Part shown: positions 2,611 to 52,154 of the stretch, piece by piece
How the letters are laid out: each line of letters starts with the position of its first letter
How positions within the stretch are numbered: the first letter of the stretch is position 1
Origin: Phycisphaerae bacterium
GTDB taxonomy: Bacteria > Planctomycetota > Phycisphaerae > Tepidisphaerales > Tepidisphaeraceae
Length of the DNA: 61,750 nt
Assembly: GCA_025924315.1 (NCBI GenBank)
Contig: JAICIO010000027.1
Coordinates: 1 to 61,750 of the forward strand
Direction: 5' to 3'
The notes under the pieces: generated by a model
The model's database searches: none
What the model was told of the DNA's origin: nothing
The model's input: only the letters and a program-made list of their open reading frames with translations
Made by a program: the position numbers and the translations under genes

Positions 2611-3921
2611 GTGTCAGCAGAATCGCGAGCCCATCGCCCGAACGGCCGCCGCAGGATCCTCCGGATTTTGCTGGTTTTTGTGCTGTTTGTCGGTCCTTTC
2701 GCGATCTATCGCACCCTGACCCGTCCGCCGAAATATCAACCGAAATATCAGACCATCGCGCATCGCTTTCTCGACCTGCAGGCGCAGTACGACTGGTCCG
2801 TCACCCAAGACGACTACAAGTTGCTCGACGACATCATCACGCAGGTGAAGTCGAACGTCCGGTACGATCCTTCGCTCACCAAACTCGCGGATCGACAGGC
2901 CCAGTTCCTGCGGATTTTTCGCGCGATTGACGCGGTCCTGATCGACAGGAACTTCATCTTTCCGCCGGATCATTGGGACACAACGCTGGACGAAGCGTTC
3001 GAGGAGCGCGCGCTCAGCGACGATGAGTTCCAAAAGGCGATCAATCACCCTCATAACGCGCGGCGTGCCGCGCACATGAGAGAGCACGCGGGTGATGGCT
3101 TTCACTACATTGCGTGCGAGCCGTCGGCGCTTCTCTACGCGGGAATCGCCGAGGCGATGGGGTTTGAATTAAGGCTCGTGACGGTGCCGCAGCACGTCTT
3201 CGTGCGCGTGCAGCTTGACGATCACCACGCGATGAACTGGGATGCGAATCGCGGCCGCTCGATCCCCGACGACGAATACATCCGCGACTGGGGCGTGGAA
3301 GATTGGCAGATCCGCGAGGGCACGTACATGCATCCGCTGTCGGCTCGCGAGATCGAAGGCGATATGTACTGCAACATCGGGGTGTGCCTCGCGAACCACA
3401 ACGCCTTCCGCGGGCTCGACGGCGCGATCTCGTGTCTTCGAAAGGCGATCGAGCTTGATCCGCGCGACCCGTACGGCTACGCGGATCTCGCGCTCAACTT
3501 GCTGTTCGATCCTGACCCCGATGCCGAAACCCGCGCCGAAGCGACGCGACTGACCGAGCGCGCCGTCACGCTTCAACCGAACGAAGCATCCTTCCACGCC
3601 GCGCGAGCCTACGCCTTCGCAGCCGACGGTGCGACAACGGCCGCGGTAGGGGAACTCACCAAAGCCCGGCAACTCGATCCGCAGAACGAGGAGTATCGTG
3701 ACATTTTTCCGCAGATCGAATCCGGCCACACGATGTACACTGGCTTCTCTGCCCAGCACCCGATTGCCTTCTGGATCGTCCACCAGCACGGCTGGCTCTA
3801 TCTCCTGATCATCATCCCTGCGAGCGGGATTGCACTTCTGGTCAGGATCGTTCGTTTTCGCCGGAAGAGGTCACCGGCACCGCCCACCTCCGAAGCGGCG
3901 GTTGCCATGGGTGTAAGCTAA
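2611..3921 (+). CDS. transglutaminase-like cysteine peptidase domain protein with C-terminal TPR repeats, membrane anchored
   Basis: Candidate Cys/His/Asp triad in IACEP ... PQHVFVRV ... NWDAN. C-terminal TPR-like repeats follow. TM segments at the N-terminus and near the C-terminus. Confidence 0.55.
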   Translation: MSAESRAHRPNGRRRILRILLVFVLFVGPFAIYRTLTRPPKYQPKYQTIAHRFLDLQAQYDWSVTQDDYKLLDDIITQVKSNVRYDPSLTKLADRQAQFLRIFRAIDAVLIDRNFIFPPDHWDTTLDEAFEERALSDDEFQKAINHPHNARRAAHMREHAGDGFHYIACEPSALLYAGIAEAMGFELRLVTVPQHVFVRVQLDDHHAMNWDANRGRSIPDDEYIRDWGVEDWQIREGTYMHPLSAREIEGDMYCNIGVCLANHNAFRGLDGAISCLRKAIELDPRDPYGYADLALNLLFDPDPDAETRAEATRLTERAVTLQPNEASFHAARAYAFAADGATTAAVGELTKARQLDPQNEEYRDIFPQIESGHTMYTGFSAQHPIAFWIVHQHGWLYLLIIIPASGIALLVRIVRFRRKRSPAPPTSEAAVAMGVS

Positions 3922-4053
3922 ATCCAGTTGCGATACTTCGACATCCACACCAATCGCGCGGAGAAGGCCCAGAAAGAGAGGTGCGCACTCCTAGTCGTGC
4001 GAACCTCGATGGAGGGTTCGCGGCCAAGTTCATCCGATCCCTTGGGAATCGCA

Positions 4054-8095: not shown

Positions 8096-9244
8096 ATGCG
8101 ATCAACGCCTATTCCTCTTTCTTCTCCCGACATCACGCAGCGGGAAATCGATGCGGTCGTCGAGGTCATGCAGACACCGACGCTTTCGATCGGGCCGCGG
8201 GTTGAAGAGTTCGAGCGCAAAGTAGCGAAGCTCACGAACCGCCAGCACGGCGTGGCGGTGTCGTCGGGTACGACCGGGTTGCACTGCGCGATGATCGCGG
8301 CGGGGATCGGGCCGGGGGATGAGGTCATCACCACGCCGTTTTCGTTTGTCGCGTCCGCCAACTGCGTTCTCTACGTCGGGGCGAAGCCGGTTTTCGTCGA
8401 TATCGATCCGAAGACGCTCAACATCGACGTGTCGAAAGTGGCGAGTGCGATTACGCCGAAGACCAAGGCGATCGTCGCGGTGGAAACTTTTGGTCATCCT
8501 GGTGGAATGATCGAACTGGAGCAGCTCGTCCAGCAGCACGAGCTGATGCTGATCGAAGATTCGTGCGAAGGCTTCGGCGGAACGCACGGCACGCGGCCGA
8601 TCGGCTCCTTCGGCCGCGCGAGCGTCTTCGGTTTTTATCCCAACAAGCAAATCACCACCGGCGAAGGCGGGATGATCGTCACCGACGACGACGTCTTCGC
8701 GAACCTGTGCCGATCGCTCCGCAATCAGGGCCGTGAAGGGATGAGCTGGCTGGCGCACCAGCGGTTGGGGTACAACTATCGCTTAAGTGAGATCAACGCG
8801 GCCATTGGTTGTGTTCAATGCGATCGCATTGAGGAGATTCTGGCGGCCCGTCGCAAAGTCGCCCACACCTACATCAACCGGCTGATGACCAATCGTTTCC
8901 TGATTCTGCCGACGCTTGAAGACGACACGCACATGAGCTGGTTCGTCTTCGTCGTGCGGTTGAACGACCTGTTCGAAGTCGGCGCAAGAGACGACATCAT
9001 GCGCGATCTCCGCGCGCAGGGAATGGGCTGCAACAACTACTTCCCGCCGATTCATCTGCAGCCGTACATGGCGCAGGAGTTCGGCTTCAAAGAAGGCGAT
9101 TTCCCTGTCTGCGAATATGTCTCGGCGCGGACAATCGCGCTGCCGTTCTTCGGCAAGCTGACGACCCGGCAAGTGCAGCGCGTCTGCGACACGCTCGAGA
9201 AGATCCTGGACAAATCAATGACTTCGAAGAAGAGCCGGTTCTGA
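8096..9244 (+). CDS. DegT/DnrJ/EryC1/StrS-family PLP-dependent sugar aminotransferase
   Basis: Reads MRSTPIPLSSPDITQREIDAVVEVMQ...GPRVEEFE...VAVSSGTTGLH. The alternative upstream ATG is 8069. Confidence 0.8.
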   Translation: MRSTPIPLSSPDITQREIDAVVEVMQTPTLSIGPRVEEFERKVAKLTNRQHGVAVSSGTTGLHCAMIAAGIGPGDEVITTPFSFVASANCVLYVGAKPVFVDIDPKTLNIDVSKVASAITPKTKAIVAVETFGHPGGMIELEQLVQQHELMLIEDSCEGFGGTHGTRPIGSFGRASVFGFYPNKQITTGEGGMIVTDDDVFANLCRSLRNQGREGMSWLAHQRLGYNYRLSEINAAIGCVQCDRIEEILAARRKVAHTYINRLMTNRFLILPTLEDDTHMSWFVFVVRLNDLFEVGARDDIMRDLRAQGMGCNNYFPPIHLQPYMAQEFGFKEGDFPVCEYVSARTIALPFFGKLTTRQVQRVCDTLEKILDKSMTSKKSRF

Positions 9245-15476: not shown

Positions 15477-15489
15477 TCGGAATAGAGAC

Positions 15490-15564
15490 GTCATCCTGAG
15501 CGAAGCGAAGGATCTCGGGATGGCAAGACGTGTGCGATATCGAGATCCTTCGCTTCGCTCAGAG
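15490..15564. repeat. inverted pair of the GTCATYCTGAGCGAAGCGAAGRATCTC repeat (hairpin, no internal gene)
   Basis: gtcatcctgagcgaagcgaaggatctcggg-N21-cgagatccttcgcttcgctcagag. Same motif as the repeats flanking the GIY-YIG gene. Confidence 0.8.
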
Positions 15565-15714
15565 TCTGTGATTTTTTGCGTGGCGAGGGCGTCTCGCCCT
15601 CGCATTTGCGGCTACCGCCGCGTTCGCGAGGGCAAGATGCCCTCGCCACGCTGAAAAGATCACACGCTCTCAGGATGACGGTTTTCGTTTTAGCCAACGT
15701 CACTTCGCGAGAAT

Positions 15715-15745
15715 GTCATTCTGAGCGCAGCGAAGAATCTCGGGG
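15715..15745. repeat. GTCATTCTGAGCGCAGCGAAGAATCTCGGGG repeat forming the 3-prime end of the GIY-YIG gene (left terminal inverted repeat)
   Basis: Partner in inverted orientation at 16118-16146. A partial inverted copy, ctcaggatgacg, lies at 15669-15680. Confidence 0.8.
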
Positions 15746-16045
15746 CGGTGCAGGCGCGACATCGGTGAGATCGTCGTATAGATCCTTCCACGTCGGATTC
15801 TTCGATTCGATGAGCGAGATCTTCTTTGCTCGCGTCCAGCCTTTGATCTTCTTCTCAGCTTCGATCGCCTGGATCGGAGTCGGGAATGTCTTGTAGTAAA
15901 CCAGAATGTTCACGTTGTACTTGGCGGCGAAGCCGGGCATCAGCTTCCGTTTGTGCTGGTCGATACGAGAAACCAGATCACTTGTCACGCCTACGTACAG
16001 CACAGCTGTCTTGCTCGCGACAACGTAGACATACGTTTCGCGCAT
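15716..16045 (-). CDS. GIY-YIG nuclease superfamily small protein
   Basis: TYVYVVASKTAVLYVGVTSDLVSRIDQHKRK...AKYNVNILVYY...AIEAEKKIKGW. The annotated upstream extension (from 16186) is repeat-derived. Confidence 0.7.
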   Translation of the reverse strand: MRETYVYVVASKTAVLYVGVTSDLVSRIDQHKRKLMPGFAAKYNVNILVYYKTFPTPIQAIEAEKKIKGWTRAKKISLIESKNPTWKDLYDDLTDVAPAPPRDSSLRSE

Positions 16046-16068
16046 CGTCATTGAAATGTAATCCGCGT

Positions 16069-16146
16069 CGTCACTTGGAGCGAAGCGAAGATCTGGAAAT
16101 CGATAGGCGCTCGCGATCCCGGGATTCTTCGCTGCGCTCAGAATGA
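16069..16146. repeat. two further copies (direct plus inverted) of the GCGAAGCGAAG repeat upstream of the GIY-YIG gene (right terminal inverted repeat)
   Basis: gtcacttggagcgaagcgaagatctgg at 16069-16095 and cccgggattcttcgctgcgctcagaatgac at 16118-16146. Confidence 0.8.
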
Positions 16147-16357
16147 CGTTTTTCGTTGGCCAGCAAGCATATCTCAATCTCCTCAATCTGACGTGACGGG
16201 CGGCAAATCGGCTTGTCGCGTCGAACGCAATTGGCCAAAACCAGCGGCCTGCTCAGGTCTTTCGGCAAAAAATCCTCCGGCATGCACGTTGCTTTTCTGT
16301 GCTCGCGAGAATTGTCTCGCGAACAGCAAACTTGTCCCATTTTTGAAGGAGAACGTC

Positions 16358-20855: not shown

Positions 20856-20926
20856 GTAGGGTGTGCTTCAGCACACCATCTGAACAGCGCAGTTAAGGAA
20901 AGACGGTGTGCTGAAGCACACCCTAC
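20856..20926. repeat. palindromic repeat family, GTGTGC variant lacking the GGTTAT core
   Basis: gtagggtgtgcttcagcacacc-N27-ggtgtgctgaagcacaccctac. Same variant at 52094-52154. Confidence 0.8.
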
Positions 20927-20943
20927 GAGAAGGATCAAACACT

Positions 20944-21331: not shown

Positions 21332-22963
21332 ATGGCAGCGAAACAGATGAAGTATGAAACCGACGCTCGCGCGGAAATCGCCGCGGGGTTGTCGCAATTG
21401 GCCCGCGCCGTCAAGGCGACCCTCGGGCCCCGCGGACGCAACGTCGTTCTGCAGAAGTCGTTCGGCTCTCCGCGGATCACCAAGGACGGCGTGACCGTCG
21501 CGAAGGAGATCGAACTCCCGCAGCCGTTCGAGAACATGGGCGCCAAGCTCGTGCAGACCGTTGCCAGCAAGACGGGCGACGTCGCCGGCGATGGCACGAC
21601 CACCGCGACCGTGCTCGCCGAGGCCATCTTCAAAGAAGGCCTTAAGTACGTGACCAGCGGCGGCGCGAATCCCGTGCAGATTCAACGCGGGATCCTGAAG
21701 GCATCCGAAGTCGCGTCCGAAGCGATCACCGCCATCAGCAAGAAGGTCAAGGGACGCGAAGATTACAAGCGCGTCGCCACGATCAGCGCCAACGGCGACG
21801 AACATATCGGCGACCTCATGGCCGACGCGATGGAGAAGGTCGGCAAGGAAGGCGTGATCACCGTCGACGAAGGCAAGAGCACCGAATCGGTTCTCGAATA
21901 CACCGAGGGCATGCAGTTCGATAAGGGCTACCTCTCGCCGTACTTCATGACGAACCCGACGACGCTCGATGCGACGCTGGAAGACGCGTACATCCTGCTC
22001 CACGAGAAGAAGATTGCCAACCTGGCCGAGCTGCTTCCGCTGCTGAACAAGATCGTCACCAGCAGCAAGCCCCTGCTGATCATCGCGGAAGACGTCGAAG
22101 CTGAGGCGCTCGCCGCGCTCGTGGTGAACAAGCTTCGTGGCGTTCTCAACATTTGCGCGGTAAAGGCTCCAGGCTTCGGCGATCGCCGCAAGGCGATGAT
22201 GGGCGACCTCGCCGTCGTCACCGGCGGAAAGTTCATCTCCGAGGACATCGGATTGAAACTTGAAAACGTGGAACTTGAAGACCTCGGCACCGCGAGGCGG
22301 ATCGTGGTCGACAAGGACAACACACTGATCGTCGAAGGCGGCGGTTCGAAGAAGGAAATCACCGGCCGTGCCGATCAGATCCGCAAGCAGATCGAAACCA
22401 CGACCTCGGACTACGACAAGGAAAAGCTCCAGGAGCGCCTTGCGAAGCTGACCGGTGGCGTGGCCGTCGTGAAGGCCGGCGCGAACACCGAGACCGAGAT
22501 GAAGGAACGCAAGGACCTCATCGACGACGCGCTGCACGCGGTGAAGGCGTCGGCCGAAGAGGGCATCGTCCCCGGCGGCGGCGTCGCATTCCTCCGCGCG
22601 ATCGAAGCGGTGGAGAACGGCAAGCGTCAGGCGAAGGGCGACGAGAAGATCGGCTTCGACATCGTTGCCGAAGCGCTCCGCAGCCCCGCTCGTCAGATCG
22701 CCGACAACGCCGGTGAAGACGGCGAAGTGATCGTCGCGCAGATCCTCGAAAACAAGAACGCCAGCTACGGCTACAACGCCGCGACCGGCGAATTCGGTGA
22801 CATGTTCAAGATGGGCATCATCGACCCGACCAAGGTGTCGAAGACGGCGTTGCAGAACGCCGCATCGGTCGCGGGCCTCGCGCTCACGACGGATGTGCTG
22901 ATCACCGAGATCAAAGAAAAGAAAGGCGAAGAAGCCGCGGCCGTGAACGGCGCGATTTCGTAA
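21332..22963 (+). CDS. groL: chaperonin GroEL (copy 2, cotranscribed with groES; no GGM tail)
   Basis: [20 protein letters not shown]...[17 protein letters not shown]...[15 protein letters not shown]. Confidence 0.95.
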
Positions 22964-30619: not shown

Positions 30620-30693
<74 letters not shown>

Positions 30694-31647: not shown

Positions 31648-31717
31648 GTGCGCTCATCGCACTGGTTATTTCTTCTGTGCGAGCAATGAATAACCGGTGC
31701 GCTGAAGCGCACTCTAC
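31644..31717. repeat. 75-bp palindromic repeat family copy (divergent variant)
   Basis: gtaggtgcgctcatcgcactggttat-N21-ataaccggtgcgctgaagcgcactctac. Confidence 0.75.
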
Positions 31718-31742
31718 AGGCTGTTGCGTTCGATTCGGGTGA

Positions 31743-31770
31743 TGTCATTCCGAGCGAAGCGAATAATCTG
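31743..31770. repeat. solo copy of the GTCATTCYGAGCGAAGCGAA repeat
   Basis: gtcattccgagcgaagcgaataatctgg. Confidence 0.7.
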
Positions 31771-50453: not shown

Positions 50454-52097
50454 ATGGATCCGCTCTACACGTTCACGCTCTCACACGACGGCACGCCGGC
50501 TTCTTACGACGAATCGCTCGCCGTCGCCTGCTTGCAAGGCCTCATCAATCGCGACGCGCCGCGGTTGTATGTGCTGTCCAAGAAGAACGCGCGGCCGCAA
50601 TACTGGCTCGACATTCTCTCGAAGAACAATCGCTGGCTCGCGGGGCGGGAGCTTCACGCGATCGAGGATCTCGATGGATTGATCAAGCTCACCGGCGACA
50701 AGCTGAAAGGCGCGGTCATCTGGGACCCTGAAGTTCCCGCCACCGTGAACGTCGCGACGACGATCGCGGGGATCGAGGACGGCGTTGTGCTCAGTCCCGA
50801 GTTGCACCAATCGTCATCGCTCCCGGTCCTCCACGATCTTCGCGGAAGATCCACCGGATCCGAGACCGGAAGCAAAAAGAACGACGCCTATCGCTGGGCG
50901 ATTCGCGAGTACCTCGACAAGAACCTCTGCTCGTCGAAATTTCTCTGCCTTTATGAAGATTCGTTTACGATGCGCGCCAAGGGCGACATCGGCTACATCC
51001 TCACGCGCGACTGGGCAGTGAAGAATCATTCGTTCGTGTTCGACCTTTCACCATGGCCGGACGAAGCGCCCGCCGATGACCCGGATCAGAAGATCGGCAT
51101 CGATTATGAAACGTACCAGATGATCCTCGACCGCATTGGCAAATCCGCCGGCGGAAAGCACATGACGGAGATGACCGGCTTCTTCGCGTTCACCAAATAT
51201 TCGAGTGAAGGTGGCCGCAAGAGCAAGCATCTCCCGGTGCCGACGGAATGGCAAACGGTGTGGATCATCTCGCCGCACAACACCTATCAGAACACCATCT
51301 CGAGCGATTGTTTCAATCAGTCGCTGCACAGCCAGGCCCCGCGAAAGCCGCTCAAGCAGAAGTTCAACAGACCTCCGCTGCCGAAGCTCGAGAACAAAGC
51401 GTACGTCGCGATTCTCATGGCGGATTACGATTCCGCGACGCCGCTCTACGATTTTCTCCCGTCGCATTGGGACGACGCGCAGCGCGGCACGTCGCCGTTT
51501 ATCTGGGGCATGAATCCGAATCTCATTGACACGTATCCGGACCTCATTGCTTACTTTTACGAGACGGCGACGAGTGCGGATACGTTCGGCTCCGATGCAA
51601 GCTGCGCGGGGTACATGAATCCAAACTCAATCCGCAAAGAATCGCTTCCGCTGTTCACCGCGCACAACAAGAAATACTTTACCGAAGCCGACATGACGAT
51701 CGCGCCGATGGTGCTCGACCAGGATCAGCCCTCGCCCGACGTGAAGGATGCGTTCGCACAATTCGCGCCCCAGGGGATGGCATGCTTCGTCGATGACCAG
51801 CATGGCACAGGCGGAAAATTCCCGCCGCCGCAGGTTTGGAAGGGCATGCCGGTCATCGAATTGATGAACGAGCCGTGCAATTCAAAAAGCCCGGAAGAAC
51901 TCGCGACGGCGTTCGCGCGGCGCATCACGGCATATCGCCCCGGTTCACCGCTCTTCTGCATCTTCCGCTGCGTGTGGGTGAATCCGTCCGCGGTAAAAGG
52001 CGGGCTTGAACTGCTGAAGAAGCAGAACCCAAACCTACCAATCGAGGTGGTCGATCCGCACACGTTCTTGTCGCTGTTCAAAGTGTGGAAGTCGTAG
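50454..52097 (+). CDS. hypothetical protein (possible carbohydrate-active enzyme), function unknown
   Basis: 547 aa with good coding signal. No motif recognized with confidence. Located next to the sulfatase. Confidence 0.45.
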   Translation: MDPLYTFTLSHDGTPASYDESLAVACLQGLINRDAPRLYVLSKKNARPQYWLDILSKNNRWLAGRELHAIEDLDGLIKLTGDKLKGAVIWDPEVPATVNVATTIAGIEDGVVLSPELHQSSSLPVLHDLRGRSTGSETGSKKNDAYRWAIREYLDKNLCSSKFLCLYEDSFTMRAKGDIGYILTRDWAVKNHSFVFDLSPWPDEAPADDPDQKIGIDYETYQMILDRIGKSAGGKHMTEMTGFFAFTKYSSEGGRKSKHLPVPTEWQTVWIISPHNTYQNTISSDCFNQSLHSQAPRKPLKQKFNRPPLPKLENKAYVAILMADYDSATPLYDFLPSHWDDAQRGTSPFIWGMNPNLIDTYPDLIAYFYETATSADTFGSDASCAGYMNPNSIRKESLPLFTAHNKKYFTEADMTIAPMVLDQDQPSPDVKDAFAQFAPQGMACFVDDQHGTGGKFPPPQVWKGMPVIELMNEPCNSKSPEELATAFARRITAYRPGSPLFCIFRCVWVNPSAVKGGLELLKKQNPNLPIEVVDPHTFLSLFKVWKS

Positions 52098-52154
52098 GGT
52101 GTGCTTCAGCACACTATCCTCGCCCACAAAACGGTGTGCTGAAGCACACCCTAC
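52094..52154. repeat. palindromic repeat family, GTGTGC variant
   Basis: gtagggtgtgcttcagcacac-N19-ggtgtgctgaagcacaccctac. Confidence 0.8.

Follow-up and report, generated by a model that had tools for sequence, protein, structure and literature searches.

A GIY-YIG nuclease gene between hairpin repeats in a Phycisphaerae genome: a probable Ssn/SRM module with a variant recognition hairpin

An ssnA-like gene and its flanking repeats

The window analysed here is a 61,750-nt stretch of contig JAICIO010000027.1 from a Phycisphaerae bacterium (assembly GCA_025924315.1), and the feature in question is a GIY-YIG nuclease gene bracketed by inverted copies of a 25-nt repeat. With a probability of about 85%, this locus is a module of the Ssn/SRM system (Chenal et al. 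2025, Nat Commun 16:2388; PMC11893778), in which an SsnA-type GIY-YIG gene is bracketed by its cognate hairpin repeats, the Ssn-related motifs (SRMs). The locus was assigned in this way because its repeat shares the frame of the published ones, the Tyr/Tyr/Glu positions of its protein correspond to those of SsnA, and SRM-flanked homologues are 45–55% identical to the window protein. So placed, the cassette is not a new kind of element but joins the known Ssn/SRM systems as a further member whose recognition hairpin is a variant. Four observations go beyond that description: the published SRM search string misses the window copies, the cassette has sharp borders at two sites, orthologous sites are empty, and a 106-bp element is found in two repeat arms.

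The SsnA of N. meningitidis is a 94-aa single-domain GIY-YIG protein (CDD cd10448), which binds to its hairpin repeat, NTS (CGTCATTCCCGCGMAVGCGGGAATCYRG), in single-stranded DNA (ssDNA) only and in a single orientation, and cuts a few nucleotides upstream (5') of the repeat, without acting on double-stranded DNA (dsDNA) or RNA (PMC11893778). Cutting depends on the three bases that precede the palindrome on its 5' side, binding on the C that follows it, and ssnA knock-outs are transformed five-fold better with NTS-bearing DNA (PMC11893778). The characterised enzymes come from Neisseria, N. elongata, N. wadsworthii and Wolbachia; an SRM was found near 71% of the homologues, on both sides in 42%, and the NTS-ssnA-NTS arrangement was likened by its authors to an insertion sequence (IS) and to REP/RAYT (PMC11893778). 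The suggestion of the initial annotation of the window that the nuclease acts on the repeat hairpin is thus in line with the cleavage of ssDNA by SsnA homologues beside their own hairpin repeats (PMC11893778).

A scan of the window revealed two exact copies of the 25-mer GTCATTCTGAGCGCAGCGAAGAATC, in opposite orientations at the two ends of the gene, and two more copies with up to three mismatches (Table 1), while no matches are expected in shuffled sequence. The inverted repeat that brackets the gene measures 33 nt and is 94% complementary (15712–15744 vs 16118–16150). On the gene strand, the upstream outer arm reads in the forward (cleavable-strand) form, GTC ATTCT GA GC GCA GC GA AGAAT C, and together with a degenerate inner arm it makes up a doublet of ~80 nt (16069–16147) immediately upstream of the start codon, for which DNA folding gives −18 to −21 kcal/mol. 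The inner arm is likewise degenerate at the equivalent place in two further cassettes, L084 and L081, which are described below. A gene-less doublet lies between the cassette and a response-regulator gene; two of the three mismatches in its first arm form a compensatory pair (ATCCT/AGGAT). According to a covariance-model scan of the window, the only SRM copy beyond this cluster is the one at 31744, which carries two stem mismatches and has lost the folding of its stem.

These results largely bear out the repeat copies listed in the initial annotation, with corrections. The GIY-YIG gene between inverted copies is intact, with exact 25-mers at its ends and a recognisable PF01541 domain, and the copies are real, but the right arm ends at 16147 and not at 16146. 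The copy at 16069–16095, described as an additional direct copy, exists as the degenerate inner arm of the upstream doublet. The gene-less inverted pair placed at 15490–15564 is a genuine doublet, the second arm of which is interrupted by a 106-bp insertion that separates 15562..15544 from 15679..15669. What had been taken for a separate partial copy at 15669–15680 is instead the severed 5' end of that arm, and the solo copy noted near 31743 starts one nucleotide later and is decayed.

Table 1. Positions of the gene, the SRM arms and the nested element in the window
Feature	Position	Strand	Evidence
ssnA-like single-domain GIY-YIG nuclease gene	15716..16051	-	PF01541, E=2.8e-15
Outer SRM hairpin arm, upstream of gene	16123..16147	-	exact 25-mer; covariance model 44.1 bits, E=1e-9
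Degenerate inner arm	16069..16095	+	covariance model 14 bits; 83% complementary to outer arm 16123-16147
3'-end SRM hairpin arm, inverted relative to the upstream outer arm	15715..15739	+	exact 25-mer; covariance model 47.6 bits
First arm of gene-less SRM doublet	15490..15514	+	25-mer with 3 mismatches; covariance model 47.9 bits
3' part (CTGAGCGAAGCGAAGGATC) of the doublet's second arm	15544..15562	-	partial covariance-model match 15548-15562; minus-strand read
5' part (GTCATCCTGAG) of the doublet's second arm, displaced by nested insertion	15669..15679	-	100% complementary to 15489-15500
Nested 106-bp palindromic element, second repeat family, GTGGCGAGGGC...GCCCTCGCCAC	15563..15668	-	inserted in SRM arm, 5-bp CTGAG duplication
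Solo decayed SRM copy, 16 kb from cassette	31744..31768	+	3 mismatches; covariance model 26.1 bits, E=8e-5

The predicted protein has 111 aa when read from 16051, or 109 aa if the start is at 16045. PF01541 spans residues 7–77 of the 111 and is the sole domain found, and an NCBIfam search of the protein returned no matches. A homology search found 132 homologues. In 31 homologues, residues Y9, Y19, H33, E66, R74 and N85 (numbering of the 111-aa form) vary little or not at all, Y9 and E66 being invariant and Y19 being kept in at least 90%. With numbering from the second Met (16045), Y7, Y17 and E64 face Y6, Y17 and E64 of SsnA, a match by position only. The TGA stop codon (15718–15716) lies inside the 3' SRM arm, the repeat encodes the last seven residues, DSSLRSE, and the residues past about position 92 are repeat-encoded. 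Among the 120 closest homologues, 39 terminate in a repeat-encoded tail of the DSSLRSE or DPSLRSG type, in lineages from Patescibacteria to Acidobacteriota and Bacteroidota. The recurring peptides that had been attributed to the repeat are indeed its translations (DSSLRSE, SEAKDL and SERSEES tails). In many ssnA-like genes, the TGA stop comes from the SRM, and database gene calls extend into the repeats (P0002, P0044, P0006, P0012), their C-terminal tails and N-terminal extensions being translated SRM or nested-repeat DNA; an example is P0002, MRGRDALATQKITDSQRSEESR...

The layout of gene and repeat was compared in 80 homologous loci from many phyla, a hairpin being counted if it lay within 150 bp of the gene. 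Such a hairpin was present at 42 of these loci, and on both sides of the gene at 31, so the repeat-gene-repeat layout proposed for the window is general. In the most common arrangement (19 loci), a forward arm stands upstream and a reverse arm covers the stop codon. The 3' arm is in reverse orientation at 31 of 38 loci, while the reverse-gene-reverse, reverse-gene-forward and forward-gene-forward layouts together account for 12 of the 31 doubly flanked loci. Matches to the published SRM string flank the gene at 12 of the 80 loci (L021, L067, L029, L043 and L049 among them), and it is the proteins of these loci that show the 45–55% identity to the window protein mentioned above. The NTS consensus itself occurs in exact copies at locus L067, and the gene of L021 is bracketed by copies with one mismatch.

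The window module resembles the published system in its single-domain protein of about 94–110 aa, its repeat-gene-repeat layout and its spread over phyla, and probably in the dispersal of many copies away from the gene, of which the 61.7-kb window contains one. The hairpin is likewise directional and has the NTS frame, CGTCATTC...GAATC, including the critical flanking bases (GTC on the 5' side and C on the 3' side). It differs in the core, ATTCT-GA-GC-GNA-GC-GA-AGAAT as opposed to the fully paired ATTCCCGC-GMAV-GCGGGAAT, and in the host, an uncultured lineage of soil-type metagenome-assembled genomes (MAGs) and not a symbiont or pathogen; the activity and role of the window module are predictions.

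Folding of the repeat arm and its possible specificity class

Covariation strongly indicates that a single arm is a self-folding hairpin, composed of YGTC, a 5-bp stem, a tandem G.A, GC-GNA-GC, a second tandem G.A, the other side of the stem and a final C. In an initial survey, a fuzzy 25-mer search of the 80 homologous loci, the mismatches were found to pair up (ATTCT/AGAAT, ATCCT/AGGAT, ACCCT/AGGGT and ATTCC/GGAAT in the stem; GC/GC, AC/GT and GT/AC in the inner part). Circularity was avoided by scanning metagenomes with a pattern that left both sides of five pairs free (either purine, either pyrimidine). The 144 instances among the matches listed have almost exclusively Watson–Crick pairs at these five positions; pair 5–21, for example, is CG in 72 of the listed instances, TA in 70, TG in one and CA in one. 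After reduction to 41 distinct sequences, in which all five variable pairs vary on both sides, 98.6% of the cells are paired in comparison with 87.8% in shuffles, and none of 500 shuffles reached so high a value; slid registers give at most 53% pairing. The arms are therefore not the ordinary terminal inverted repeats (TIRs) that had been proposed, since each of them folds on itself with internal covariation.

The arms yield the consensus Y-GTC-[A Y Y C Y]-GA-[NN]-G N A-[NN]-GA-[R G R R T]-C-T. Any base can stand in the middle of the triloop (A 16, C 10, G 9, T 6), while YGTC and the trailing C show little or no variation, both in 35 curated copies and in the 144 metagenomic instances listed. 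A covariance model was built from 35 repeat copies. Its matches include copies with longer stem-loops in place of the apical GC-GNA-GC, with the basal frame GTCAT-YCY-GA...GA-RGRAT-CTC kept constant, and show that paired arms frequently differ in the apical part.

Several points weigh against the assignment to the Ssn/SRM system or against its details. The published string, HGTCWYN(0-2)YYVSBRHN(0-5)WNVSBRGN(0-2)RNCYNB, matches no SRM copy in the window, and its single match there, at 22066–22094, is at chance level (0.64 expected). The implementation of the string was checked and does match NTS; the window copies are missed because the A of the tandem G.A falls at an S (G or C) position. Given this mismatch, it is the shared frame and the protein family that support the assignment of the repeat, and the protein itself was placed by residue position and by its homologues. 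The view of the locus covers 61.7 kb of the genome, and the SRM count applies to this stretch. In nearest-neighbour DNA folding, the hairpin is the minimum-energy fold of the arm, but at only −2 to −4 kcal/mol, with a z of about 0 relative to shuffles, and for this reason covariation was relied upon. This model gives no credit to sheared G.A pairs or GNA triloops, both of which add stability, as in the d(GCGAAGC) mini-hairpin. Finally, G.T wobbles favour the GA-rich strand by 8 to 4, a difference that is not significant and does not decide which strand folds.

Of the 42 loci where the gene has a hairpin nearby, 30 show the GA type or a variable apex and were detected by the new covariance model only; the published SRM census thus probably undercounts the system. 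It is possible, but tentative, that the GA-type hairpin marks a distinct Ssn specificity class missed by current SRM censuses. Such a class may be characterised by an internal loop of tandem G.A, by either a GNA triloop or a variable stem at the apex, and by Ssn proteins bearing Lys rather than Trp at one position. This column, residue 74 of the window protein counted from the Met at 16045 (Lys in ...WTRAKKISL...), separates the two groups: in GA-type proteins it is Lys in 23 of 31 and never Trp, whereas 11 of 12 canonical-SRM proteins have Trp. No Trp-type protein with a GA-type tail was found among 120 database homologues. In so small a sample, the column is a candidate specificity determinant only in the sense of a lead. 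The assignment proposed here links a very common repeat, together with widespread genes annotated as 'hypothetical GIY-YIG', to a characterised system, and would provide a natural nuclease–hairpin pair with a different core for the development of ssDNA tools.

Other identities for the repeat were also considered. Rfam gave no match to the arms at gathering score, either in the window or in 20 related loci, and at E ≤ 10 only sub-threshold generic or miRNA-type hairpin models were returned for the region. The only gathering-score Rfam match in the whole window is a tRNA gene at 30620–30693 (+). A hammerhead reading of CUGA...GAA was rejected, as the CUGANGA core is incomplete and Rfam provides no match. 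Pedo-repair RNA was also set aside: the gene context is not described in its source paper, and L080, a Pedobacter locus, shows no match. Literature searches on GIY-YIG proteins with miniature inverted-repeat transposable elements (MITEs), REPIN or REP, and on repeat-derived peptide strings, yielded nothing relevant.

Cassette borders, proposed working and rival explanations

A contig of the MAG GCA_025927995.1 (L205) is 99.7% identical to the window over 6,858 bp, and hence comes from the same species. On another contig of this MAG (L081), a second cassette with 80% DNA identity is located between an AraC-type regulator and an endonuclease III gene, and a third one, in a JGI metagenome contig (L084), occupies the site of L081. 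The homology between the window and these two cassettes (78–80%) begins exactly at the outer GTCAT, in the arm 16123..16147, and ends exactly at ATGAC, in the arm 15715..15739, with L084 7927–8358 corresponding to window 16147–15715, and the gene contexts differ. In all three cases, the gene adjoins a complete doublet and does not lie inside one. The window cassette is situated in the spacer between a response-regulator and a DUF892 gene, and an exact-match look-up of the DUF892 protein returned no record. The orthologous spacers of L213 and L207, whose regulators are 85% and 92% identical to that of the window, harbor neither the gene nor any SRM; L207 originates from the same metagenome as L084. 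The exact insertion point could not be mapped against these empty spacers, which are too diverged. In L207, an unrelated 82-aa ORF without a Pfam match (3748–3996, minus strand) is found where the ssnA cassette would sit.

Judging from its sharp borders, its occurrence within one species at two sites that are unrelated, and the empty orthologous sites, the cassette is a discrete unit that has been gained or lost. The 'compact mobile unit' of the initial annotation stands to this extent, and the presence/absence difference that it expected from related genomes was found. Target-site duplications, by contrast, are absent at all three cassettes (AAAAC/ATTCT in the window, GGCTT/TGATC in L084, CGCCT/GTTCT in L081), and transposition by the nuclease is unproven, recombination-mediated gain or loss being at least as likely. 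The reading of the other copies of the repeat as empty-site footprints is not supported, since the empty orthologous sites carry no repeat. Ssn-SRM cassettes may move or exchange as discrete GTCAT...ATGAC units. The borders, the two sites and the empty sites add comparative evidence to the hypothesis, left open in the published work, that NTS-ssnA-NTS is or was a mobile cassette.

The motif is abundant in metagenomes, with at least the matches listed, and the nuclease gene accompanies it at three of 120 motif-selected loci, being absent from 117. Among 60 motif-selected metagenome loci analysed with the covariance model, 32 have a solo copy and 22 a forward-reverse doublet, so gene-less doublets are common.

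The module may work as follows. In ssDNA, the repeat would fold as a directional hairpin, 5'-Y GTC, stem, tandem G.A, GC-GNA-GC, tandem G.A, stem, C-3'. If it acts like the characterised enzymes, the window protein would bind this folded hairpin in ssDNA only, and only in the GTC...C orientation, and would hydrolyse the strand at a presumed position a few nucleotides 5' of GTC; the predicted ssDNA substrate consists of a 5' flank and the forward hairpin, YGTCATTCTGAGCGNAGCGAAGAATC / CGTCATTCTGAGCGCAGCGAAGAATCTCG. As the outer arms are inverted, cuts are predicted just outside both cassette ends, one per strand. The most likely role, judging from Neisseria, would be the fragmentation of SRM-bearing ssDNA in uptake, replication or repair, and the cassette itself would spread or be replaced through host recombination rather than by a transposase reaction.

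It is unlikely that the cassette is an autonomous IS-like transposon, with the outer arms as TIRs, the GIY-YIG protein as transposase and the gene-less doublets as MITEs. Sharp GTCAT...ATGAC borders in differing gene contexts, presence or absence at an orthologous site and the dominance of the forward-gene-reverse layout would all suit such an element, as would the orientation of neighbouring pairs (24 forward-reverse vs seven reverse-forward), and the Ssn authors themselves remarked on the IS-like architecture (PMC11893778). Against it stand the lack of target-site duplications at the three cassettes, the roughly 20% divergence of the two same-species cassettes, which are old and do not indicate recent transposition, the often dissimilar apical parts of paired arms, and the 12 of 31 doubly flanked loci in other orientations. 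Moreover, the sole domain of the protein is GIY-YIG and not a DDE, HUH, serine or tyrosine recombinase, and GIY-YIG enzymes act by hydrolysing DNA, with no strand-transfer chemistry known for them. SsnA is also inactive on dsDNA, and a GIY-YIG hydrolase of this kind is no known transposase (PMC11893778).

Homing-type spread, in which the nuclease would cut a single-stranded gene-less doublet and recombinational repair from a gene-bearing copy would fill it, appears rather improbable. GIY-YIG homing endonucleases are a precedent for the spread of a gene by host repair, the predicted cuts fall at the outer borders, and empty forward-reverse doublets share the end structure of the forward-gene-reverse cassettes and often adjoin them. 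Yet the empty sites of L213 and L207 have no doublet to receive the gene, the gene stands beside a complete doublet rather than within it, and a Pfam search of the protein found no I-TevI-type DNA-binding domain. An RNA-level role, with the hairpins stabilising mRNA, terminating transcription or regulating the nuclease transcript in cis, is very improbable. At most loci, the forward arm falls in the 5' leader and the reverse arm on the stop codon, which would agree with such a role, and a structure conserved by covariation would suit RNA as well. Nevertheless, no Rfam family matches, most copies are remote from ssnA, and no T-tract, terminator-like or promoter site is predicted at the arms. 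C-G-closed GNA triloops with sheared G.A pairs are, furthermore, typical of DNA mini-hairpins, and RNA of the NTS sequence is not bound by SsnA (PMC11893778).

Of the known systems other than Ssn/SRM, REP/REPIN with RAYT is similar in its short hairpin repeats, solo and as inverted doublets, and in the gene for a hairpin-recognising ssDNA enzyme flanked by its own repeats, with few genes and many repeats. RAYT, however, is an HUH/Y1 (IS200-like) transposase and not a GIY-YIG hydrolase, and REPs are species-specific, whereas the frame of the window repeat is kept across phyla. In IS200/IS605, too, the enzyme of the element recognises subterminal ssDNA hairpins, and target-site duplications are lacking, but both hairpins lie on the same strand and make the ends asymmetric, unlike the inverted ends of the window cassette, and TnpA forms a covalent intermediate and rejoins the strands, while the enzyme class of the window only hydrolyses. 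Free-standing GIY-YIG homing endonucleases (I-TevI, SegA-G) share the catalytic domain and a compact, selfish-looking gene; they differ in having a linker or DNA-binding domain and a long dsDNA homing site in place of the putative ssDNA substrate, and the window gene is flanked by repeats.

The nested element and other repeat families

The 106-bp element that splits the second arm of the gene-less doublet is 100% identical to a sequence present at L081 620–725 / L083 307–412, where it interrupts another SRM arm upstream of that cassette. The insertion point is the same at both loci, after GTCATYCTGAG and with CTGAG/CTCAG on either side, and the surrounding arms differ. An identical sequence at the same site in diverged hosts suggests a small element with recent activity, which has the SRM hairpin as its target; with its two independent copies, it may be regarded, as a lead, as a MITE-like element with the SRM hairpin as landing site. 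Its arms are GTGGCGAGGGCATCTTGCCCTCGC, and they are the origin of the peptide 'RGRDALAT'.

Dense arrays of 4–11 SRM hairpins were observed around the nuclease gene or next to it in L043 (2633–3456), L068 (619–1106), L094 (380–648), L105 (4370–4789) and L019 (2675–4150). These arrays are often evenly spaced, with alternating apical variants, and resemble the mosaics of bacterial interspersed mosaic elements (BIMEs).

A third family of palindromic doublets, GTAGGGTGTGCTTCAGCACACC...GGTGTGCTGAAGCACACCCTAC, is found in the window at 20856–20930 and 52094–52154, as well as at about 31690–31720, and in L084 at 9134–9190. Its arms are REPIN-like and are themselves hairpins, and the window has the family in common with a related metagenome contig. 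Immediately upstream of the solo SRM at 31744 lies a diverged member of this family.

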